Assembly: GCA_963665295.1 (NCBI GenBank)
Contig: OY762209.1
Coordinates: forward strand, 1,632,001-1,696,000
From: Syntrophorhabdaceae bacterium
GTDB lineage: Bacteria > Desulfobacterota > Syntrophorhabdia > Syntrophorhabdales > Syntrophorhabdaceae
DNA: 64,000 nt
Reading direction: 5' to 3'
Part shown: piece after piece, positions 24,598 to 33,351 of the stretch
How the letters are laid out: each line of letters starts with the position of its first letter
How positions within the stretch are numbered: the stretch's first letter is position 1
The notes under the pieces: model-generated
Database searches by the model: none
What the model saw: the letters and a program-made list of their open reading frames with translations, nothing else
Told to the model about the DNA's origin: nothing
Made by a program: the position numbers and the translations under genes

Positions 24598-27213
24598 TCA
24601 GGTGTGCCTCAGGGAAAGGGGGACATGTTTCCGCAGCAGGTCGGCAAATTGTCCGGGCATAATGGGCTTGCTGAAATAATAACCCTGCATTTCATTACAG
24701 GAGATATTGGTCAGGAAACTCATTTGTTCTGCCGTTTCCACGCCTTCGGCGACGACATTGAGACCTAACGTTTTACCCATGCTGATAATCGCCTCGGTGA
24801 TAGCCTTGTCTCCAGCGTCTTGCGGGATGTTACGGATGAAGGACCGGTCGACTTTGAGCGTATCCACGGGAAAATGTTTGATCTGGGCAAGAGAAGAGTA
24901 ACCGGTGCCGAAATCATCAATGGCCAGCCGCACGCCCAGGCTTTTGATTTCCGCCAATACAGAGATCATACGGGCAGGATTGTACATCACCATACTTTCG
25001 GTGATTTCAAGTTCAAGCAGGTTTGGCGCCATGCCGGAATCATTCAGCGCCGTTTTGATATCATCTATCAGACCGTCATCCATAAGCTGTCGCAACGACA
25101 AATTTACCGCCATGCATATGGCGGGAAGGCCCTGCTGCTGCCAGCCAATGTTCTGGGCGCATGCGGTCTTCAGGACCCACCTGCCGATGGGCACTATTAA
25201 TCCTGTTTCTTCGGCCACCGGAATGAATTGTGTGGGCGTTACCGAACCAAGGTACGGGTTCTGCCAGCGAAGGAGCGCCTCCACGCCGGTGATCGCGTTG
25301 GTCTTGAAGTCAACTTGCGCCTGATAATGCAGAGAGAGTTCGTTACGTTCAAGGGCAAAGCGCAGGTGAGTTTCAATCGATAGACGTTCCAACGATTTTG
25401 ATTGAATATCCTCGGAGTAGAATTGGTAATTGTTCTTGCCTTCCTCCTTGGCAAGATACATGGCCATATCGGCATTTTTCATCAGAGATTGCTCGTCTTC
25501 GGCATCCTTGGGGTACATGCAGATGCCGATGCTCGCCGTTATGCGGCATTCTTGTCCCATAAGAGTTATGGGTTTGATGATACTGGTAAGAATCTTGTGA
25601 GCCACTGTGGCGACCTGATTTGAATCACTTACCTCCTCGATCAATATAACGAACTCATCTCCTCCCAGACGGCCGACAACATCAACTGCCCGCAACGGTT
25701 GTTTCAACCGCGTGGCGACTTCTTGCAGAAGCTGGTCTCCTGCCTTGTGACCCAGGGTATCGTTGATAATTTTGAAGCGATCCAAGTCAAGGAATAACAC
25801 GGCAAACTGCCGCTTATAACGCCGTGCCGCCTGAATGGCGTGATTCAGCAGTTGGTTGAACATGGAGCGGTTGGGCAGTCCTGTCAGGACGTCGTGTGTG
25901 GCGAGGTACTGAATCTCTTCTCCGGCGCGCTTGCGTTCGGTGATGTCGCGGACAATCGCCTGAATAATCGGTTTGCCGTCCAGTTCCATGGCAGTGAGCA
26001 CCACATCGGCAGGGAAGGCCTCGCCGGTGTCGTTTCTCTTGTGCATCCACTCGAAACGAGTGCTGCCCTTTTCCATCGCCGTTGCGATCATCTCGTTGGC
26101 CAGCACCATGGAATCCGTGCCGCACGGCTGTTGCGGCGGTGACAAACCGGCGGGGTGTTTCGCGCAGAACTCCTCCAGGGTCGCGCAGCCGAAGAGCACC
26201 AGGGTCGCCTGGTTGCAGTCGAAAAAGCCCTTTTCGTCCAGCAGCATTACCGCGTCGCTGGACGAATCGTAGAGTGTACGGAACTTCGTTTCCGACCGGT
26301 GCAGCGCCTCCTCCGTCCGCTTGCGCTCGGTAATGTCCAAGAGCGTTTCAATGACGGCCGATATCTTGTCATGTTTATCGCGTATAGGCGCGGCATCAAA
26401 CACGATATACCTGGTTTTTCCGCCCAGATCGGGATACCAGCCTTCCGCGTGTATTCCGTCAGGTATGAGCACGGACCTCGTGTAGACGGGGTAAAGGTCG
26501 GCCGTCTCATCAAACTCATTGTCAATGATTATGTCCGCGACACAAGGACGGGGATGACTATAGAAGGCTTTCCAGTGATCACTGGTGCCAAGTAAGTCCT
26601 CTGATCTTACTCCGGTGAGGTATTCGCATGCCTTATTCCAGTAAATAACTTTATGTTCCGGATTAACGACAAAAGTAGCCACCGCGGAACTTTGAACAAT
26701 GGATTCCATGAATCTGTCTTTTTCCCTTAATGCCTCCTCTGTCCGCTTGCCTTCGGTGATGTCCTCGATGGCCAGGAGGATGATCCGCTTTGTTTCCGAC
26801 GCTCCTTGAACCCGGCGGGCGTTCAAAAGCATCATGCGCCTGCCGATGGTCGGAAAATCGTGTTCCACTTCATAGTTATTGATCCTGCCATCATTTGGAA
26901 GAATATCTTCAAGCAGCGTCCGGAGACGCGGAGTATCCCATTGCCGGTTTCCGAGGTCATAGATAAGGCTGCCTATAGTCTCGTCCGGCGTGACCTCGAA
27001 TGAATCATAGAAGCTACGGGTGGCCTTGACAACCTTCAGATCTGAATCCAGCACCAAAAGGGGCTCGCGGATCGTCTCAAGAATGCTCTCAGTGTAGTTG
27101 AAAGCTTCCTGAATTTCCCGTTCTTTCCGCGTGTGGCGGGCCTCCGATCCTTCAAGCCCGGCAACGCCTTGTCCATCCGCGCGATATTCTCCCGGTTTGC
27201 CCCGGTCTCTCAC
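24598..27213 (-). CDS. PAS-PAS-PAS-GGDEF-EAL c-di-GMP cyclase/phosphodiesterase
   Basis: HDVLTGLPNR, RLGGDEF, VEALLRW and DDFGTGYSSL motifs; start tentatively GTG at 27213 with GAGG RBS. Confidence 0.9.
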   Translation of the reverse strand: MRDRGKPGEYRADGQGVAGLEGSEARHTRKEREIQEAFNYTESILETIREPLLVLDSDLKVVKATRSFYDSFEVTPDETIGSLIYDLGNRQWDTPRLRTLLEDILPNDGRINNYEVEHDFPTIGRRMMLLNARRVQGASETKRIILLAIEDITEGKRTEEALREKDRFMESIVQSSAVATFVVNPEHKVIYWNKACEYLTGVRSEDLLGTSDHWKAFYSHPRPCVADIIIDNEFDETADLYPVYTRSVLIPDGIHAEGWYPDLGGKTRYIVFDAAPIRDKHDKISAVIETLLDITERKRTEEALHRSETKFRTLYDSSSDAVMLLDEKGFFDCNQATLVLFGCATLEEFCAKHPAGLSPPQQPCGTDSMVLANEMIATAMEKGSTRFEWMHKRNDTGEAFPADVVLTAMELDGKPIIQAIVRDITERKRAGEEIQYLATHDVLTGLPNRSMFNQLLNHAIQAARRYKRQFAVLFLDLDRFKIINDTLGHKAGDQLLQEVATRLKQPLRAVDVVGRLGGDEFVILIEEVSDSNQVATVAHKILTSIIKPITLMGQECRITASIGICMYPKDAEDEQSLMKNADMAMYLAKEEGKNNYQFYSEDIQSKSLERLSIETHLRFALERNELSLHYQAQVDFKTNAITGVEALLRWQNPYLGSVTPTQFIPVAEETGLIVPIGRWVLKTACAQNIGWQQQGLPAICMAVNLSLRQLMDDGLIDDIKTALNDSGMAPNLLELEITESMVMYNPARMISVLAEIKSLGVRLAIDDFGTGYSSLAQIKHFPVDTLKVDRSFIRNIPQDAGDKAITEAIISMGKTLGLNVVAEGVETAEQMSFLTNISCNEMQGYYFSKPIMPGQFADLLRKHVPLSLRHT

Positions 27214-27352
27214 GTTATGCCTCGCATCATCAGTTTTCCAATAATTTAAGTATAACAACAAAACAGGGAACTGCAAGCGACCTTTACCACCGCCCCTCAA
27301 TGTCCGTGAACCCATCGGTTGAAATGGTAATCTGAGCCATGTTAAGCCGAAA

Positions 27353-27381
27353 GGAGGAAAGGGGCGATGCCCCTTTCCTCC
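27353..27381 (-). terminator. hairpin, probable terminator of the aminotransferase gene
   Basis: GGAGGAAAGGGG-N5-CCCCTTTCCTCC stem followed by a short T run on the minus strand. Confidence 0.5.
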
Positions 27382-27529
27382 AAATCCTGAATATCTGCAC
27401 GGCCTGCTCCGGATTCTTCGCAAGTCCGGAAAGCCCTGTCGTTGCTATGCGTATCTCCTCGACAGGGAGCGGAGAATTCTCAGTTACGCCTGCCCCCTGC
27501 GATAAAGCCATCCGCCCACACCTGCAAGG

Positions 27530-28798
27530 CTATTTCACCTCACCGCAAAGCCTCTCGCCTGCGGCCACAAGGGTCTCCATCTTCTTCGCGAAGGCGAAGC
27601 GCACCGTTTTTTTACCCATTCCCGGCGTGCCATAGAAGACCGATCCCGGCACCACAGCGACGCCGAGGTGAGCGGGCAACCAGCGGGCAAAAGAGTGGTC
27701 GTCTCCATCGAAATCCCACTGGCTGAAGTCGGCCATCACATAGTACGAGCCTTCTGGAGGTTGGGCGCCAAGGCGGGTTTTGCTCAGGACGGACATCATG
27801 GTTTCTCTTCTTGCCGCATAGTCGGCCCGCAGTTTTCCATAGTAGGCGTCCGGCAGGGTGAGCGCCGCGGTGCACGCAGCCTGGAGAGGGGCCGGGGCAC
27901 AGATGGTCATGAAATCGTGGACCGTGCGGATCCCGAGGGTGAGCGGATTCAAGGCACAGGCATACCCGAGGCGCCATCCCGTCAAGGCGAAGGTTTTGCC
28001 GAACCCGCTGATCGTTACGGTCCGGTCCGCCATACCCGGGACCGCGGCGAGGGGCAGATGCCGATGACCATCATACAGTATATGTTCGTATATCTCGTCG
28101 GTGACGGCGATGACATTGAACTCCATGCACAATTTGGCGATACCTTCCAGTTCGTCTCTTGTAAAGACGTGCCCTGTGGGGTTGTGAGGCGTATTGATAA
28201 GGATGATCCGGGTGCGTTCGTTGAAAGCGGCGCGGAGTTTGTCAAGGTCAAGCGTATACCCAGGCGGGTCGAGCGGCACGAACCGGGGAACTCCGCTGGC
28301 AAAGATAACCGCGGGAAAGTATCCCTCGTGGAAGGGCTCTATGATAATCACCTCATCGCCGGGATTCACGTTGCTCATCATGGTAGCGAGGATCGCCTCC
28401 GTCACCCCGCAGGTAACGGTGATATGTTCGTCGGGGTCAAAAGCGAGATTGTACCATCGTTTCATTTTGGCGGAGATTGCCTGTCGCAGCGCGGGCGCGC
28501 CCCACGTGACCGTGTACTGGTTCCCGCCCGCATCGAGGGCCTGATGGGCCGCCTCTATTACCTCCCGGGGAGGATCAAAGTCAGGAAAACCCTGGGAAAG
28601 GTTGATGGCGTTGTGGGTGATGGCAAGGCGTGTCATCTCCCGTATAAAGGATTCCCGCAATTGTGAGAGTCGCCGGGCGCCTCCGCCAGTCACGGGATTG
28701 TATCTTTTATCCACTGCCGAGCTGTTTGCTTTGTGGACAATCTCCATTCTCGTTCCCTCGTTCCTTTGTACCGCTTTCTCCGTCACTTCGTTTTTCAT
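27530..28798 (-). CDS. class I/II PLP-dependent aminotransferase (YbdL-like; possibly aromatic/tyrosine)
   Basis: AINLSQGFPDF, NTPHNPTG, DEIYEH and SGFGKTFALTGWRLG motifs; GGGAGG RBS. Confidence 0.92.
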   Translation of the reverse strand: MKNEVTEKAVQRNEGTRMEIVHKANSSAVDKRYNPVTGGGARRLSQLRESFIREMTRLAITHNAINLSQGFPDFDPPREVIEAAHQALDAGGNQYTVTWGAPALRQAISAKMKRWYNLAFDPDEHITVTCGVTEAILATMMSNVNPGDEVIIIEPFHEGYFPAVIFASGVPRFVPLDPPGYTLDLDKLRAAFNERTRIILINTPHNPTGHVFTRDELEGIAKLCMEFNVIAVTDEIYEHILYDGHRHLPLAAVPGMADRTVTISGFGKTFALTGWRLGYACALNPLTLGIRTVHDFMTICAPAPLQAACTAALTLPDAYYGKLRADYAARRETMMSVLSKTRLGAQPPEGSYYVMADFSQWDFDGDDHSFARWLPAHLGVAVVPGSVFYGTPGMGKKTVRFAFAKKMETLVAAGERLCGEVK

Positions 28799-28861
28799 AA
28801 AACCTCCCTATTTGTTGTTTTCAGGGTTAAACGACCGCTTTGTCTCCCGTCGTTATTACCC

Positions 28862-28934
28862 AAAAAAAGAGGGCCATGGTAAGAGACCATAGCCCTTAAA
28901 AACCAAAAGGCCATGGGTTGTGCGCCCATGGCCT
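28862..28934 (-). terminator. attenuator terminator hairpins in the aminotransferase leader
   Basis: AGGCCATGGG/CCCATGGCCT followed by TTTGGTTTTT, and a second stem AGGGCTATGGT/ACCATGGCCCT followed by T7. Confidence 0.8.
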
Positions 28935-28963
28935 CCGTCTTTCAGTCGATCAGAGAAAGACCA

Positions 28964-29032
28964 TCATGAGCGCACCTTGGTGTAATAATAATAGTAATAA
29001 TAGCTGACCGGCGCGCTGGTGATGATTTTCAT
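28964..29032 (-). CDS. Tyr-rich attenuator leader peptide MKIITSAPVSYYYYYYYTKVRS
   Basis: 22-aa ORF with 7 consecutive TAT/TAC codons; its 3' end is complementary to the terminator 5' arm. Confidence 0.85.
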   Translation of the reverse strand: MKIITSAPVSYYYYYYYTKVRS

Positions 29033-29038
29033 ATGGTC

Positions 29039-29067
29039 ACGATATCATATGGAATATGACAAGTCAA
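29039..29067 (-). promoter_or_regulatory. sigma-70 promoter of the leader (probably leaderless transcript)
   Basis: TTGACT-N17-TATCGT with TG extension, 6 nt before the leader ATG. Confidence 0.6.
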
Positions 29068-29406
29068 CATAAATGTCGTTCAGAGAACGCAGGCCATGGC
29101 CTGTATACAGAAGCCACACCTTTAACCTCGATGGTTGACGGCCTGAACCTGCCGCGTTATCGACTCAACGCCCCACCTTCTCACGGGGGCACCATGGGCG
29201 CCCCTTATTCCCGATCCCGGGAAGCACGCGCCATTTCCGAAATAAAGGCGGGACAGCGCCCGCATATGGAGGCGGATGCCGGCCCGCGTCCGGCGCGATG
29301 CGGACGGGTATAGACAAGTATGCCCTTGCGGCGGAAGAAGGATCTGCCCTTTATCCCGACTATTGAAACTCCGGAAAATATGATACAATCGAAAAAGGAG
29401 AACACC

Positions 29407-30369
29407 ATGAAAACTCTGAGAACCGATTCGTGGCATGTCTTTCCCGCTTTTCCGATCACTGCCCTCGCGGTGATCCTCGCGATAATCCTCCTCTCTCCCC
29501 TGACATCGGTCGCCGACAGCCCGTCGCCCGCCGGGACGCCTGTTCTCTGGCCTTCCCGCATGGATGGGTGGAAGATTGCGGAAGGACCCGTAGTTTATGA
29601 CCGGAAGTCGGCTTATACCTATATGGACGGGTCGGCGGAGTTGTTCATCGCCTTCAACATGGAGACGGTGACTGTGGTGAGGTACGAGTCGGCGGGGCGG
29701 CCCGCGATTGTTCTGGAGGTCTACCGGATGGGCTCCACGGACGACGCCTATGGCCTTTTTACCTTCGAGAGCGACGATCCCGCAGCGGGGATAGGCCAGG
29801 GGTCGGAATTCGGGGGCGGTCTCCTCCGGTTTTATAAAGGATATTATTTCGTGAGCGTGTACGGGGATGGCACGGGCGCGGACGTGGAGGCCGCGACTTT
29901 GAGTATTGGACGCTACGTGGCGGACGCCATCACGGAGACGGGTAAGAAGCCTGCGATCCTGGACCTTCTCCCGGACGGAGAAAGCCCTTACGTGAGGGCC
30001 GCGACGTGGCTGCTTCGGAGTCACATCCTCCTCAACCAGCGCTTTTCCGTCTCCAGGAAAAATATACTGAACCTCGCCGCTGATACGGAGGCGGTCCTTG
30101 CCCGGTATGAGAGCGGCAAGGAGAAGGTCCACCTCCTTCTCGTAAAGTATCCCGACAGGGCACGGGCGGATTCGGCCTTCTCGGGTTTCAAGGCGGAATA
30201 TGCACCTGACGGGGGAAGCTTCCCGAGGAAGACGGGGAACAATAAGTGGGTCGCCGCAGGGGCCTACGGCCGTTACGTTCTCGCAATATTCGATGCCCCC
30301 GATGAGACGTTTGCCACGAAAATGCTCAGGAATGCGGCCGCGCCGCTCGACAAGGAGGCACGACAATGA
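29407..30369 (+). CDS. DUF6599-like exported protein
   Basis: Signal peptide; YMDGSAELF and LEVYRMGSTDDAYGLFT motifs; overlaps the DUF362 gene start. Confidence 0.65.
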   Translation: MKTLRTDSWHVFPAFPITALAVILAIILLSPLTSVADSPSPAGTPVLWPSRMDGWKIAEGPVVYDRKSAYTYMDGSAELFIAFNMETVTVVRYESAGRPAIVLEVYRMGSTDDAYGLFTFESDDPAAGIGQGSEFGGGLLRFYKGYYFVSVYGDGTGADVEAATLSIGRYVADAITETGKKPAILDLLPDGESPYVRAATWLLRSHILLNQRFSVSRKNILNLAADTEAVLARYESGKEKVHLLLVKYPDRARADSAFSGFKAEYAPDGGSFPRKTGNNKWVAAGAYGRYVLAIFDAPDETFATKMLRNAAAPLDKEARQ

Positions 30370-31256
30370 AAGAAAAGAAAACGATCACCCGCCGCGATTT
30401 TCTTAAGGGGACCGCGGGCATCGCGTTGGGGGCCGCCCTTGGCCCCATGCTTCCCGGCTTCACCATGGCCCAGGCATCTCCCAGGGTAGTTCTCGTAAGG
30501 GATGCGGACGTGGTGGGCCCCGGCGGGGAGGTAAACGGGAAGATACTCGCGTCCATGCTCGACGAAGCGGTCCGCCTCGTGACCGGGGCGAAAGAGCCCC
30601 TTGACGGGTGGAAGGGCCTCTTCGGGAAATCCGACGTCGTAGGGGTTAAGACCAACGCCTGGCGCTACCTGTCCACCCCGAAAGAGATGGAAGAGGCCAT
30701 CCGGCGGCGCGTCATGGAGACGGGAGTGGAGGAGAAGAATATTGCGGTAGACGACAGGGGCATTCGCACCAACCCTGTGTTCATGAGGTCCACCGCCCTC
30801 GTCAACGTCCGTCCCGTGAGGACCCACCATTGGGCAGGGGTGGGGACGTGTCTCAAGAACTACATCATGTTCGTGCCTACCCCTTCGGAGTACCATCCCG
30901 ACGGATGCGCCGAGCTGGGCAGGGTATGGACCCTACCGGAAGTGAAAGGAAAGACCCGCCTCAACATACTCGTGGCCCTTACCCCTCAGTTTTACGGGAG
31001 GGGGGCGAACTTTTTCGACAGGCGATATGTCTGGTCTTACAAGGGCATAATCGTGGGCATCGACCCCGTGGCAGTCGACACGGTGGGCGCGGAGCTTCTG
31101 AAGCGAAAGCGGATTGCCCAATTCGGAGAGGACAGGGCCCTCGATGTGACACCCCACCATATAACGGTGGCGGACCGGAAGTACAGGCTCGGCGTGTCGG
31201 ATCTCAAGAAGATCGACCTTGTAAAAGTCGGCTGGAAGGAAGATATTCTCCTTTAG
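30366..31256 (+). CDS. DUF362 domain protein with Tat signal
   Basis: TRRDFLK twin-arginine motif; VGVKTN, GTCLKNY and DPVAVD motifs. Confidence 0.8.
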   Translation: MKEKKTITRRDFLKGTAGIALGAALGPMLPGFTMAQASPRVVLVRDADVVGPGGEVNGKILASMLDEAVRLVTGAKEPLDGWKGLFGKSDVVGVKTNAWRYLSTPKEMEEAIRRRVMETGVEEKNIAVDDRGIRTNPVFMRSTALVNVRPVRTHHWAGVGTCLKNYIMFVPTPSEYHPDGCAELGRVWTLPEVKGKTRLNILVALTPQFYGRGANFFDRRYVWSYKGIIVGIDPVAVDTVGAELLKRKRIAQFGEDRALDVTPHHITVADRKYRLGVSDLKKIDLVKVGWKEDILL

Positions 31257-31317
31257 GAAGGACAATTTTGTCCGGGGGCCGTCATGGGCTTCATTCCGGA
31301 AAGATGGGAGGTGCCTG

Positions 31318-33351
31318 ATGATTATAAACGATGCAATCGCACGGGCCATGTCCATAAGACTCGACGAGGTGGTGGGTGATCTTCCTCCTCCACCTTCTTT
31401 CAGGGAAGGGATCAGGAGGGCGCCCAAGCGGAACTTCACCCTTTCAAGGGAAGAGACGGTCCTCGCACTGAAGAACGCCCTCCGGTACGTGCCGGAAAAG
31501 TGGCACGGGGTCCTCGCGCCCGAATTCCTCGACGAGCTTCTTACAAGGGGCCGCGTGTACGCGTACCGGTTCAGGCCCGAGGGGGCCATCACGGGAAGGC
31601 CCGTCGAGACCTATTCCGGTAAGTGCATGGAAGGCAGGGCCTTCCAGGTAATGATCGACAACAATCTCGATTTCGACGTGGCCCTCTATCCCTACGAGCT
31701 CGTAACCTACGGGGAGACGGGGCAGGTCTGCCAGAACTGGCTTCAGTACCGCCTTATCAAGGCCTATCTCGAAGTCTTGACTACGGAGCAGACCCTCGTC
31801 GTCGAATCGGGCCATCCCCTTGGACTCTTCAGGTCGAACGAAAACGCCCCCAGGGTGATAATCACGAACGCCCTCATGGTGGGGTGTTTTGACGACCAGG
31901 AGAACTGGAGCCGGGCCGCCCAACTGGGGGTGGCCAATTACGGCCAGATGACCGCGGGCGGGTGGATGTACATCGGGCCCCAGGGCATCGTCCACGGTAC
32001 TTATTCCACGGTCCTCAACGCGGCGCGCCTCATGTTCAACCTCCCTGATGACGCGGACATGAGGGGACATATCTTTGTCTCCTCCGGCCTGGGCGGCATG
32101 AGCGGGGCCCAGGGCAAGGCGGTGGAAATCGCGAACGGGGTGGCGATCATTGCCGAGGTGGACCCTTCAAGGATCGAGACGAGGCATTCCCAGGGTTGGA
32201 TCGGCGAGGTGGTGGAAATGCCCGCCGAGGCATTCCGGATTGCAAAAGAGTACCAGACGGGAAAGAGTAAAGGGTCCATCGCCTTCTACGGCAACATAGT
32301 GGACCTTCTCGAATACGCGGTGGAGAACCGTGTGGCCATCGACCTTCTCTCGGATCAGACCTCGTGCCACGCGGCCTACGACGGGGGATACTGCCCCCAG
32401 GGGCTCACCTTCGACGAAAGGACGGACCTTCTGGGCAGGGACCATGACAGGTTCAAGGAAATGGTGGTCCGGTCCCTCAAGACCCACTATCGCCATATCA
32501 AGACCCTTGTGGAGCGGGGCACGTATTTCTTCGACTATGGGAACAGCTTCCTCAAGGCCATATACGACGCGGGCGTCACGGAGATATGCAGGAACGGGAG
32601 GGATGCGACGGACGGTTTCGTATTCCCCTCCTATGTGGAAGACATTATGGGACCCCTCCTTTTCGACCTCGGGTACGGGCCGTTCCGGTGGGTAGCCTTG
32701 AGTGGGTCACCCGTTGACCTTGAGAAGACCGACAAAGCGGCCATGTCGTGCATTGACCCCGGCAGGAGATTCCAGGACCGGGACAACCACGCGTGGATAA
32801 GGGATGCCGTCAAGAACAGGCTCGTGGTGGGCACCCAGGCGAGAATCCTCTACCAGGACGCGGAGGGGAGGATGAGGATAGCCCTCAAGTTCAACGAGAT
32901 GGTGAGGAACGGCGAGATAGGGCCCGTCATGCTGGGTCGCGATCACCACGATACGGGGGGCACGGACTCTCCCTTCAGGGAAACGGCGAACATCAGGGAC
33001 GGGAGCAACATTATGGCGGATATGGCTACCCAGTGTTTCGCGGGCAACGCGGCGCGGGGCATGAGTCTCGTCGCCCTTCACAACGGGGGCGGCGTAGGCA
33101 TCGGCAAGGCGATCAACGGCGGGTTCGGCCTCGTCCTCGACGGGAGCGCGCGGGTGGACCGGGTAATCCGGGAAGCCATCCCCTGGGATGTGATGGGCGG
33201 TGTGGCGAGGAGGGCCTGGGCCCGCAACCCCGGGTCCATCGAGACGGCCATGGCGTATAACGAGGCCATGAAAGGGTCCGACCATATCACCCTTCCCTAC
33301 CTGGCGGACGAGGGGGCGCTCGCACGCCTCGTGGACAAGTTTATGCCGTGA
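31318..33351 (+). CDS. hutU: urocanate hydratase (long form)
   Basis: YGQMTAGGWMYIGPQGIVHGT, GLGGMSGAQ, DQTSCH, GRDHHD and HNGGGVG motifs. Confidence 0.96.
   Translation: MIINDAIARAMSIRLDEVVGDLPPPPSFREGIRRAPKRNFTLSREETVLALKNALRYVPEKWHGVLAPEFLDELLTRGRVYAYRFRPEGAITGRPVETYSGKCMEGRAFQVMIDNNLDFDVALYPYELVTYGETGQVCQNWLQYRLIKAYLEVLTTEQTLVVESGHPLGLFRSNENAPRVIITNALMVGCFDDQENWSRAAQLGVANYGQMTAGGWMYIGPQGIVHGTYSTVLNAARLMFNLPDDADMRGHIFVSSGLGGMSGAQGKAVEIANGVAIIAEVDPSRIETRHSQGWIGEVVEMPAEAFRIAKEYQTGKSKGSIAFYGNIVDLLEYAVENRVAIDLLSDQTSCHAAYDGGYCPQGLTFDERTDLLGRDHDRFKEMVVRSLKTHYRHIKTLVERGTYFFDYGNSFLKAIYDAGVTEICRNGRDATDGFVFPSYVEDIMGPLLFDLGYGPFRWVALSGSPVDLEKTDKAAMSCIDPGRRFQDRDNHAWIRDAVKNRLVVGTQARILYQDAEGRMRIALKFNEMVRNGEIGPVMLGRDHHDTGGTDSPFRETANIRDGSNIMADMATQCFAGNAARGMSLVALHNGGGVGIGKAINGGFGLVLDGSARVDRVIREAIPWDVMGGVARRAWARNPGSIETAMAYNEAMKGSDHITLPYLADEGALARLVDKFMP

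Follow-up and report, generated by a model that had tools for sequence, protein, structure and literature searches.

The window, a 64,000-nucleotide stretch of Syntrophorhabdaceae DNA, carries ahead of a single aminotransferase gene an element that is probably a ribosome-mediated, leader-peptide transcription attenuator sensing charged tRNA-Tyr. We put the probability of this reading, which is based on sequence analysis, at about 85%. It draws on the sequence elements themselves, on their conservation among relatives, on the feasibility of the alternative folds and on the codon logic of sister leaders in the same genome.

A short leader ORF with a run of tyrosine codons

The promoter and the leader lie upstream of the aminotransferase gene as follows.

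29039..29067, minus strand: sigma-70-type promoter, TTGACT-17-TATCGT with a TG extension, the sole promoter-like site in 28500-29500
29032->28964, minus strand: leader ORF of 22 codons starting with ATG, peptide MKIITSAPVSYYYYYYYTKVRS
28982..29002, minus strand: proposed sensing site, seven consecutive Tyr codons (TAT TAT TAC TAT TAT TAT TAC)

A sequence-only reading of this DNA had described a 22-residue ORF with seven Tyr codons of mixed spelling, and this ORF is indeed present, with five TAT and two TAC codons in the run; the other frames of the repeat have no start codon in the window, as had been claimed. Tyr runs of at least five codons occur only three times in all six frames of the 5.5-Mb genome, the run of seven in the window being the longest, and the leader is the genome's only short ATG ORF with at least four consecutive Tyr. 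Summed over 18 leaders, the runs contain 84 TAT and 36 TAC codons; the genome's long ORFs use 45% TAT. Swaps between TAT and TAC are also silent in the Leu frame of the repeat (TTA/CTA), so that the reading frame is fixed by the ATG and the stop codon and not by the codon pattern. The folding energy of the 245-nt leader is -88.1 kcal/mol (z = -5.95 against 200 shuffles). A second short ORF fused to the aminotransferase was considered and ruled out for the window, which does not have it.

The promoter that had been proposed to put the transcription start near the ATG was recovered as well. In the window, the leader ATG begins 6 nt past the -10 hexamer, and no Shine-Dalgarno sequence precedes it. 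The distance from the -10 to the in-frame ATG is 6-9 nt in all 17 leaders with the promoter in view, a spacing that fits a start with no or almost no untranslated leader, and the arrangement TTGAC[AT]-17-(-10) is kept in 17/17 relatives with upstream sequence in view. Because of this short distance and the lack of a Shine-Dalgarno sequence, the leader mRNA is predicted to be leaderless or nearly so. In a search of sequencing runs for this DNA, five runs were listed as containing it, and no RNA run was among them.

Conservation of the leader among relatives

Orthologues were collected at 23 loci of a public genome collection, 16 of them in Syntrophorhabdus-type or "delta proteobacterium" MAGs and seven in other phyla. 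A run of 5-9 Tyr codons precedes the gene at all 16 of the former; at the seven loci from Chloroflexi, Acidobacteriota, Anaerolineae and Planctomycetia, no Tyr run lies within 520 nt upstream. At all 16 related loci and one more, the 5-9 Tyr codons come with the promoter and hairpins seen in the window. Leader, promoter, antiterminator and terminators were found at every close orthologue examined, which bears out the earlier suggestion that poly-Tyr leaders would accompany orthologues. Among 41 relatives, the leader stands on all three close orthologues and on none of the seven more distant paralogues. A pattern joining the Tyr run to the first terminator-like hairpin (hairpin 1, below) matches 23 of the order's 96 genomes, with one match in each and none for the reversed control pattern; among the 41 genomes just mentioned, the matches are exactly the four having the close orthologue. 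For a search with (TAY)5, the reversed control matches the same repeats and so does not discriminate. In a protein tree of 26 sequences, the enzymes with the leader group into a single clade (16 rows, support 100/99).

The way in which the leaders differ is that expected of a translated sequence. Peptide N-termini vary freely, with 8-13 codons ahead of the Tyr run, while the length of the run differs by whole codons and only TAT/TAC changes are seen within it. An intact ATG ORF passes through the run in 17 of the 18 aligned leaders. The exception, L034, has one extra base, so that its ATG opens the Leu frame; the aminotransferase gene at this locus carries a frameshift too, and the extra base is likely an assembly error. 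A chance origin of the leader was rejected in view of this conservation.

Two tandem hairpins and their alternative partners

Downstream of the promoter, the leader RNA can be divided into six segments.

29006..29026 (approximate limits), minus strand: segment 1, the 5' arm of the 1:2 hairpin (anti-antiterminator), 15 pairs with segment 2
28965..28975, minus strand: segment 2, GTGCGCTCATG, 5' strand of the antiterminator, pairing with 28930-28920
28937..28961, minus strand: middle hairpin GTCTTTC...GAAAGAC, from folding, enclosed in the antiterminator helix
28906..28936, minus strand: hairpin 1 (segments 3:4), 12 pairs, -21.0 kcal/mol, terminator-like, tail TGGTTTTTAA
28887..28916, minus strand: alternative 4:5 hairpin, CCAUGGCCUUU (28916-28906) pairing with AAGGGCUAUGG (28897-28887), -16.3 kcal/mol
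28862..28896, minus strand: hairpin 2 (segments 5:6), 11 pairs (28896-28870), -18.4 kcal/mol, tail CTTTTTTTGG

Segment 1 was taken from a fold ending at the hairpin-1 loop with no ribosome. The Tyr codons lie within the loop of the resulting 1:2 hairpin, and in the window the leader stop codon, TGA at 28966-28964, falls inside segment 2. The claim that segment 2 can pair over the 5' arm of a terminator was confirmed: GTGCGCTCATG (28975-28965) is complementary to CATGGGCGCAC (28930-28920) over 11 pairs, one of which is G-U, and its target consists of segment 3 plus the hairpin-1 loop. The equivalent of the middle hairpin in relatives is CTTTCT...AGAAAG, with the leader stop codon in its loop.

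A hairpin scan of the minus strand placed two G+C-rich, U-tailed hairpins between the leader ORF and the gene as predicted intrinsic terminators (28936-28906 and 28896-28870), in agreement with the terminator and second hairpin named before. Hairpin 1 is made up of GGCCATGGG, the loop CGCACAA and CCCATGGCC, followed by UUUUGGUUUUU, and is predicted to be the first terminator in the window genome. Its nine stem pairs are invariant in 18/18 leaders. It is U-tailed in 13 of the 18 and lacks a U-tract in five, so that the signal must reach hairpin 2, the only consistent terminator. Hairpin 2 is made up of GGGCUAUGG, a loop and CCAUGGCCC, followed by UCUUUUUUU; a U-rich tail follows it in all 17 leaders with the tail in view, the sequence of L018 ending short. 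A palindromic CCATGG core is common to both hairpins, and the 3' arm of hairpin 1, CCATGGCC, is complementary to the 5' arm of hairpin 2, GGCCATGG. A relay like that of the his operon thereby becomes possible, with 1:2/3:4/5:6 as one state and 2:3/4:5 as the other. The relay role of hairpin 2, in which segment 4 pairs with segment 5, was absent from the sequence-only reading.

For the switch, transcripts of 18 leaders were ended at the hairpin-1 loop and folded with the second Tyr codon masked as if by a ribosome. The 2:3 antiterminator helix, of 9-12 bp, formed in every masked leader, its nine-pair core included, which is the outcome expected from the earlier proposal that ribosome stalling at low Tyr-tRNA switches the gene on. 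In ribosome-free folds with the same end, 1:2 was the lowest-energy structure in eight of the 18 (the window included), 2:3 in seven and neither in three. The energy of the 4:5 helix ranges from -15.2 to -19.6 kcal/mol over the 18 leaders, compared with -16.2 to -22.3 for hairpin 2. In the 2:3 helix, a substantial two-sided change occurs at one pair only, alignment pair 78:126 (leader base:loop base; 28971:28926 in the window), which is A-U in 14 leaders, G-C in three and G-U in one. In the 4:5 helix, 93.9% of cells are paired and the changes are one-sided with none two-sided, so 4:5 is supported by complementarity and energy and not by covariation. Of the whole-structure measures compared with 500 shuffles, the covariation score stands out (2/500) and the other four do not (38, 432, 70 and 346 of 500). 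A relay switch with 2:3 and 4:5 as alternatives thus appears feasible in these leaders, with thin covariation. Full-length minimum-energy folds retain both terminators in 18/18 leaders, with or without the ribosome mask; antitermination would therefore need a kinetic choice made during transcription, like the classical cases.

Proposed mechanism

We infer from these elements a mechanism in which the leader is translated, the ribosome stalls on it, and the choice of fold is made kinetically. Transcription would start at, or at most ~3 nt from, the leader ATG, and a ribosome on the 22-codon leader would track closely after RNA polymerase. When tyrosine is plentiful, the ribosome would reach the stop codon inside segment 2, which would be covered or later paired with segment 1. 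With segment 2 occupied, hairpins 1 (3:4) and 2 (5:6) would form, and transcription would stop ahead of the gene. When tyrosine is scarce, the ribosome would stall at the first Tyr codons, masking segment 1 and leaving segment 2 exposed. The exposed segment 2 would join the inner 5' arm and the loop of hairpin 1 (2:3), and the freed 3' arm of hairpin 1, CCAUGGCC, would join the 5' arm of hairpin 2, GGCCAUGG/GGCUAUGG, as 4:5. After release of segment 4, the 4:5 helix would thus block hairpin 2; with 2:3 and 4:5 formed there would be no terminator, and the aminotransferase gene would be transcribed.

The downstream aminotransferase

28798->27530, minus strand: gene under predicted control, a 422-aa PLP-dependent class-I aminotransferase (PF00155), with the RBS GGGAGG

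The gene is monocistronic, and in most relatives the next gene is on the opposite strand. Residues 64-408 of its product match PF00155 (1.8e-59, 202.2 bits against a cut-off of 19.7). The best PDB matches, which are nearly full length, are 1u08 YbdL (2e-84), 2o0r Rv0858c (1e-83) and kynurenine aminotransferases (9e-79), and homology accordingly assigns the enzyme to the YbdL / kynurenine-aminotransferase / Rv0858c group. Every specific NCBIfam model scored below its cut-off, the best matches being generic or "methionine aminotransferase". The model for the methionine aminotransferase YbdL, NF006569, gave 393.3 bits against a cut-off of 420, and the equivalogs PRK07777 and PRK08912 gave 415.5 against 553 and 406 against 498; by these scores the enzyme is classed as a relative, and not a member, of the three families. 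It has an extra N-terminal stretch of ~40 residues that is unmatched in orthologues from other phyla. Neighboring genes at seven loci gave no functional clue to it; they encode a methyltransferase, a cytochrome, a DnaJ-domain protein, a Pup-ligase-like protein, a formate/nitrite transporter and proteins without a Pfam match.

The most likely role of the enzyme is in tyrosine formation, either from 4-hydroxyphenylpyruvate or by way of arogenate made from prephenate. The TyrA of the genome matches PF02153 with only 34.9 bits, and its nearest solved structures are prephenate dehydrogenases (E 2e-6 to 2e-4); it is too divergent for typing as prephenate- or arogenate-specific. One paper describes enzymes of the kynurenine-aminotransferase clade as promiscuous, preferring aromatic amino acids (PMC9309667).

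Probable sister attenuators in the same genome and in the order

Three sister attenuators on the same scaffold are found elsewhere in the genome.

MRNEAISLKTNWWWWRLL: sister leader WWWW, before a trpB-like gene
MERKTAVFGFYYYFRNLHPGIFLL: sister leader FGFYYYF, before two aminotransferases
MSTRMGAVSGCEYYYFWYWYGKGVHPWGFKA: sister leader YYYFWYWY, before DAHP synthase and the remaining aro operon genes, down to aroC, pheA and tyrA

The codon mixes of these three leaders match the products of their genes, which strengthens the case for a role of the window enzyme in the tyrosine branch. The tandem CCATGG-hairpin pattern is present in 79 of the 96 genomes of the order, with 0 for the reversed control, and the 30 tandem-hairpin loci fetched comprise eight poly-Tyr, 20 Phe/Tyr-rich and two Trp leaders. 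The window element is part of a lineage-wide family of aromatic attenuators. This family had not figured in the sequence-only reading.

A wider proposal can be made tentatively, and we rate it somewhat below even odds. Tyr-specific ribosome-mediated attenuation may be one module of a portable, "codon-coded" cassette, that is, one relay scaffold (a leaderless ORF plus two CCATGG-cored hairpins whose arms cross-pair) copied before at least four transcription units and retuned by codon mix (Y, F/Y, W and Y/F/W). Such a cassette would let the lineage control the whole aromatic pathway combinatorially, with no need of protein repressors. The copy with Tyr codons only would then mark a kynurenine-aminotransferase/Rv0858c-like enzyme, whose gene also occurs in Acidobacteriota and Chloroflexi, as an aminotransferase dedicated to the tyrosine branch, which may use prephenate and feed the arogenate route.

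Alternative explanations

The alternative that deserves the most weight leaves the attenuator as a real tyrosine sensor and concerns the enzyme. Instead of being dedicated to tyrosine biosynthesis, it might be a transaminase of broad range and of the kynurenine-aminotransferase/YbdL type, acting perhaps in the salvage of 4-hydroxyphenylpyruvate that stems from aromatic compounds or in the balancing of amino groups, and having a loose link to the tyrosine branch. The shortfall of all specific NCBIfam models, with generic or "methionine aminotransferase" models scoring best, agrees with this, as does the description of the clade as highly promiscuous (PMC9309667). Leader and gene occur together in only 23 of the order's 96 genomes, which means that tyrosine synthesis there can do without the enzyme; much commoner is another aminotransferase, preceded by a Phe/Tyr leader (20 of the 30 loci fetched). 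However, a pure-Tyr leader would turn the gene on only when charged tRNA-Tyr runs short, which is the logic of a supply enzyme, and the sister leaders closely match the products of their own genes. We consider the broad-range enzyme unlikely on balance, and a tyrosine-supplying one the better reading.

Two further explanations, each very improbable and about equally so, would change the mechanism. The leader might be translated with a reversed, coupling-based logic as in pyrBI, a close ribosome melting the terminator and stalling at Tyr codons leading to termination. In its favor, both terminators are far more stable than the antiterminator, and in most relatives the leader stop codon is in the middle-hairpin loop, only ~17-20 nt before hairpin 1. 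But a ribosome at the stop codon extends no farther than the base of hairpin 1 and is ~35 nt upstream in the clade of the window, hairpin 2 lies wholly beyond it, and the conserved 2:3 helix with its covarying loop base would have no role. It would also be physiologically senseless for the aminotransferase and the whole aro operon to be off during aromatic shortage. Alternatively, the Tyr run might be untranslated and its ORF incidental to a structured RNA bound by a protein or small molecule, in the manner of a riboswitch or of TRAP/PyrR-like control, and the near-invariant hairpin stems could equally be a binding site. Yet the ATG keeps a fixed distance from the promoter, the ORF stays intact in all leaders but one of the 18 despite freely varying N-termini, and length differences come as whole codons. 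The repeat, moreover, takes the form W, F/Y or Y/F/W according to the genes that follow it, on unchanged hairpins, and the RNA has no Rfam match. These observations argue for a translated leader whose codons set the specificity of an attenuator, the reading preferred here.

Significance

The host group comprises syntrophic bacteria that are uncultured or difficult to grow, and what is known of their amino-acid metabolism comes from genomes only. An aminotransferase that could not otherwise be assigned receives a testable role from the regulatory logic. A single genome offers the same scaffold under four leaders of differing codon mix, a natural experiment on specificity set by codon content alone, and two terminators with self-complementary arms provide a relay design that can be tested directly. 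Compact tyrosine-responsive switches of this sort could also serve as biosensors.

Comparison with known systems

Leader-peptide attenuators are textbook cases for Trp, His, Phe, Leu, Thr and Ile/Val, and a natural, pure poly-Tyr leader would fill the missing tyrosine specificity among them. No published natural poly-Tyr leader or tyrosine attenuator was found in the openly searchable full-text literature, where only TyrR-type repressors and T-boxes are named for tyrosine control and aroR (below) is the one leader described that contains Tyr codons. A permissive Rfam scan of 28000-30000 (4227 families) gave six matches, all far below threshold and none a T-box, the best being an unrelated sRNA (24.3 bits against a threshold of 43); the amino-acid leader families for Trp, His, Leu, Thr and Phe and the T-box had no match at gathering score. 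The window element is most likely a real attenuator in which a known ribosome-mediated mechanism is applied to tyrosine, a use for which we found no published natural case.

The T-box is the known RNA mechanism for tyrosine according to a comparative paper of 2005 (PMC1262725). T-boxes of tyrosine genes in Firmicutes likewise act at the RNA level on the charging state of tRNA-Tyr, but they bind uncharged tRNA directly, without translation, whereas the window element would depend on the speed of a ribosome on the leader ORF. A nearer precedent by codon content is aroR of Corynebacterium glutamicum, located upstream of aroF, a Phe-Tyr-Phe leader with ribosome-mediated attenuation that, according to a review, responds to Phe limitation and is unaffected by tyrosine availability (PMC11802643). 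In both systems a leader with aromatic codons including Tyr precedes a gene; in aroR, the gene belongs to the aromatic pathway. The window run, in contrast, is pure Tyr (5-9 codons in the leaders), and its gene encodes an aminotransferase; among the leaders of this genome, the one nearer to aroR is YYYFWYWY, ahead of the aro operon.

The closest model in architecture is hisL of E. coli and Salmonella, trpL and pheL being simpler archetypes of the kind. The his operon relay alternates between A:B, C:D and E:F on one side and B:C and D:E on the other, with a leader run of seven codons for the sensed amino acid. Like hisL, the window element has a short leader ORF with seven cognate codons in a run and a six-segment chain that can fold as 1:2/3:4/5:6 or 2:3/4:5, ribosome position being predicted to select between them and the last hairpin being an intrinsic terminator. 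It differs from hisL in that it would sense tyrosine and not His, Trp or Phe, and in that its middle hairpin of the chain (hairpin 1) is U-tailed in 13 of the 18 leaders, which gives two terminators. It further differs in having a CCATGG core in both hairpins, no Shine-Dalgarno sequence and an ATG 6-9 nt after the -10, and in placing one aminotransferase gene, in place of a pathway operon, under its predicted control.

Leader anatomy

The aminotransferase gene of the window is preceded on the same strand by a compact leader:

29067-29039, minus strand: promoter TTGACT-17-TATCGT with a TG extension
29032 to 28964, minus strand: leader ORF of 22 codons, MKIITSAPVSYYYYYYYTKVRS, with its ATG six bases past the promoter
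28961-28937, minus strand: small middle hairpin
28936-28906, minus strand: hairpin 1, 12 pairs, U-rich tail
28896-28870, minus strand: hairpin 2, 11 pairs, U7 tail
28798 to 27530, minus strand: aminotransferase gene, 422 codons, preceded by a GGGAGG ribosome-binding site

The pairing of 28975-28965 with 28930-28920, proposed from the sequence alone, is exact, with one G-U among its 11 pairs. The leader folds at -88.1 kcal/mol (z = -5.95 against shuffled sequence), and an Rfam scan of this region found no family near threshold, T-box included. Across all frames of the 5.5-Mb genome, only three Tyr runs reach five codons, and the seven-codon run here exceeds the others.

Conservation and probable translation of the poly-Tyr leader

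The sequence-only reading proposed that ribosome stalling in a poly-Tyr leader peptide senses tyrosine and controls a YbdL-like aminotransferase, and the leader is indeed conserved in relatives. A close aminotransferase orthologue (72-76% identity) exists in three of 41 related genomes, not counting the window's own, and all three orthologues carry the poly-Tyr leader, the promoter and both hairpins. Seven paralogue loci at 39-50% identity, one of them in the window's genome, have none of these elements. A scan of public species-representative genomes gave 23 aminotransferase loci. Five to nine consecutive Tyr codons lie upstream in all 16 loci from MAGs labelled Syntrophorhabdus, Syntrophorhabdaceae or 'delta proteobacterium', and no Tyr run of at least four lies within 520 nt in the seven loci (57-74% identity) from Chloroflexi, Acidobacteriota/Terriglobia, Anaerolineae and Planctomycetia. 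Hairpin 1 together with five Tyr codons, used as a search pattern, matches 23 of the 96 genomes of the order Syntrophorhabdales, one copy each (reversed control, 0); within the 41 related genomes, it picks out the four that have the close orthologue and no others. A maximum-likelihood tree was built from 26 proteins, with the related loci L015 and L034 omitted. It groups the leader-bearing enzymes in a single clade of 16 rows (support 100/99), whose nearest outside relatives are one Chloroflexi row and four Acidobacteriota rows.

Signs of translation were sought in an alignment of 18 leaders. The N-termini of the peptides, 8-13 codons ahead of the Tyr run, are unrelated in sequence, the run itself is 5 to 9 codons long, and the 17 leaders whose ORF is intact all have their ATG in frame. 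Changes inside the run are TAT/TAC only (84 TAT and 36 TAC in total, against 45% TAT in the genome's long ORFs), swaps that are silent in the overlapping Leu frame too. The promoter, TTGAC[AT]-17-(-10), is found wherever the upstream sequence is long enough to show it (17 of 17 leaders). In these leaders the distance from the -10 hexamer to the in-frame ATG is 6, 7 or 9 nt and no Shine-Dalgarno sequence is present, an arrangement that fits a leaderless or nearly leaderless message. In L034 (2204-2377), one extra base moves the leader ATG into the Leu frame, so that it would become a poly-Leu leader read from TTA/CTA codons; since the aminotransferase gene of this locus is likewise frameshifted, the extra base is probably an assembly error.

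The proposed switch and terminator relay

The successive arms of the leader are numbered 1-6 here, so that hairpin 1 is 3:4, hairpin 2 is 5:6 and the antiterminator is 2:3. Both hairpins are always present in minimum-energy folds of the full-length leader, with and without a ribosome mask; therefore, the choice of fold must fall during transcription, as in classical attenuators. The transcript was accordingly folded only to the hairpin-1 loop, with a ribosome covering the RNA to 12 nt beyond the second Tyr codon. Under this mask the 2:3 antiterminator forms with 9-12 pairs in 18/18 leaders and encloses the small middle hairpin. Without the ribosome, eight leaders, including that of the window, form the 1:2 hairpin, which has the Tyr run as its loop; 2:3 forms regardless in seven, and neither forms in three. 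Nine core 2:3 pairs are present in every aligned sequence, and one pair, between a leader base and a hairpin-1 loop base, changes on both sides (A-U in 14, G-C in 3, G-U in 1). The statistical support from covariation is weak (score matched by 2 of 500 shuffles; other four measures unremarkable), because the rest of the 2:3 helix does not vary and the hairpin-1 stem is invariant.

The arms of the two hairpins are nearly identical. As a result, CCAUGGCC, the 3' arm of hairpin 1, is exactly complementary to GGCCAUGG, which forms the 5' arm of hairpin 2 and reads GGCUAUGG in the window. The resulting 4:5 hairpin folds at -15.2 to -19.6 kcal/mol in 18/18 leaders, against -16.2 to -22.3 for hairpin 2. 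From this complementarity and folding, the layout is 1:2, 3:4, 5:6 versus 2:3, 4:5. Hairpin 1 is without a U-tract in 5/18 leaders, where hairpin 2 is therefore the sole possible terminator; a U-rich tail follows hairpin 2 in all 17 leaders with the tail in view. Each arm taking part in two pairings would account for the frozen stem sequences.

Related leaders in the genome and the order

The same genome has three further attenuators of this build, all on contig G000:C1 and outside the window:

4700117 to 4700061, minus strand: Trp leader MRNEAISLKTNWWWWRLL, with TTGACA-17-TATAAA and two CCATGG hairpins, before a trpB-like gene
about 2718497 to 2718423, minus strand: Phe/Tyr leader MERKTAVFGFYYYFRNLHPGIFLL, with two CCATGG terminators, before two tandem class-I aminotransferase genes (about 397 and 394 aa)
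about 1962556 to 1962464, minus strand: mixed Tyr/Phe/Trp leader MSTRMGAVSGCEYYYFWYWYGKGVHPWGFKA, with the same two hairpins, before an aro operon

In each, as read from the sequence, a stretch at the leader 3' end or just beyond is complementary to hairpin 1 in its inner arm and loop. The operon behind MSTRMGAVSGCEYYYFWYWYGKGVHPWGFKA comprises DAHP synthase, aroB-, aroD-, aroE/K-, aroA- and aroC-like genes, chorismate mutase-prephenate dehydratase and a divergent tyrA-like gene (tyrA apart, the names come from translations, not family scans). Behind the trpB-like gene come an aminotransferase gene and an ORF; our guess is a tryptophan salvage unit. The codon mix of each leader tracks the product of its transcription unit, and this is the strongest argument for ribosome sensing and for placing the window enzyme in the tyrosine branch.

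The tandem CCATGG-hairpin pattern occurs in 79/96 genomes of the order (reversed control, 0/96). Thirty loci with it were fetched: 20 have Phe/Tyr-rich leaders before a different aminotransferase (about 396 aa), the commonest type in the order, eight have poly-Tyr leaders before the window-type enzyme, and two have Trp leaders. In a phylum sample of 401 genomes, the pattern was found in 14/15 from the order and 31/386 outside it. These 31 have T-runs and are concentrated in a few families, and some matches resemble coding sequence; the scaffold may predate the order. At L062, a locus of another genome (G059:C6, plus strand, near 1400-1600), the same scaffold carries a Trp-codon leader, WAWWW, with an in-frame GTG start. 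The gene behind it encodes, judging from the N-terminus, a secreted protein resembling a solute-binding protein, and the cassette may control a transporter also.

The aminotransferase behind the leader

The window gene encodes a class-I PLP aminotransferase (PF00155, 1.8e-59), for which the top NCBIfam models (PRK07777, PRK08912, 'methionine aminotransferase') all fall under cut-off. Its closest solved structures are E. coli YbdL, M. tuberculosis Rv0858c and kynurenine aminotransferases, a clade described in a review as promiscuous and favouring aromatic amino acids (PMC9309667). The gene stands alone, with the next gene on the opposite strand in most related loci, where adjoining genes gave no functional clue. 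Its neighbours in the window, apparently unrelated to the finding, are a DUF6599 protein, a TAT-signal DUF362 protein and a long (677-aa) urocanate hydratase homologue upstream and divergent (29320-33351, plus strand), and a PAS-GGDEF-EAL protein downstream (24598-27423, minus strand). The enzyme is a putative tyrosine-branch aminotransferase acting on 4-hydroxyphenylpyruvate or prephenate; TyrA of this genome diverges too far to be typed and so does not point to either substrate.

In the related loci L013-L025, the stretch between hairpin 2 and the aminotransferase start holds another short ORF, 13-14 codons long and with a GGAGG site of its own, whose stop overlaps that start (ATGA). It is present in 13/18 leaders, disrupted in L034 and absent from the window, L012, L026 and L002, and may couple aminotransferase translation to an upstream ORF.

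Comparison with known attenuators

Leader peptides named in a 2025 review are trpL, pheL, pheM and C. glutamicum aroR (Phe-Tyr-Phe), the last not affected by tyrosine availability (PMC11802643). For tyrosine, a 2005 comparative paper gives T-boxes as the mechanism at the RNA level, and for His, Thr and Phe it gives attenuators (PMC1262725); upstream ORFs with Cys and Phe codons are described in a 2021 survey (PMC8632094). A full-text literature search, which covered papers outside subscription, found no natural poly-Tyr leader.

The element is real and conserved, and is most likely a tyrosine-sensing leader-peptide attenuator with a two-terminator relay; we put the probability at about 0.85 for its kind, and hold the relay details and the enzyme's substrate less firmly. 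It would add the missing tyrosine member to the leader-peptide attenuators, in a cassette apparently retuned solely through its codon mix, and it suggests a testable role for an aminotransferase without assigned function. The his operon leader is built as 1:2, 3:4, 5:6 versus 2:3, 4:5. The leaders studied here would share this design, with the difference that the middle one of the three hairpins, hairpin 1, is usually also a terminator.
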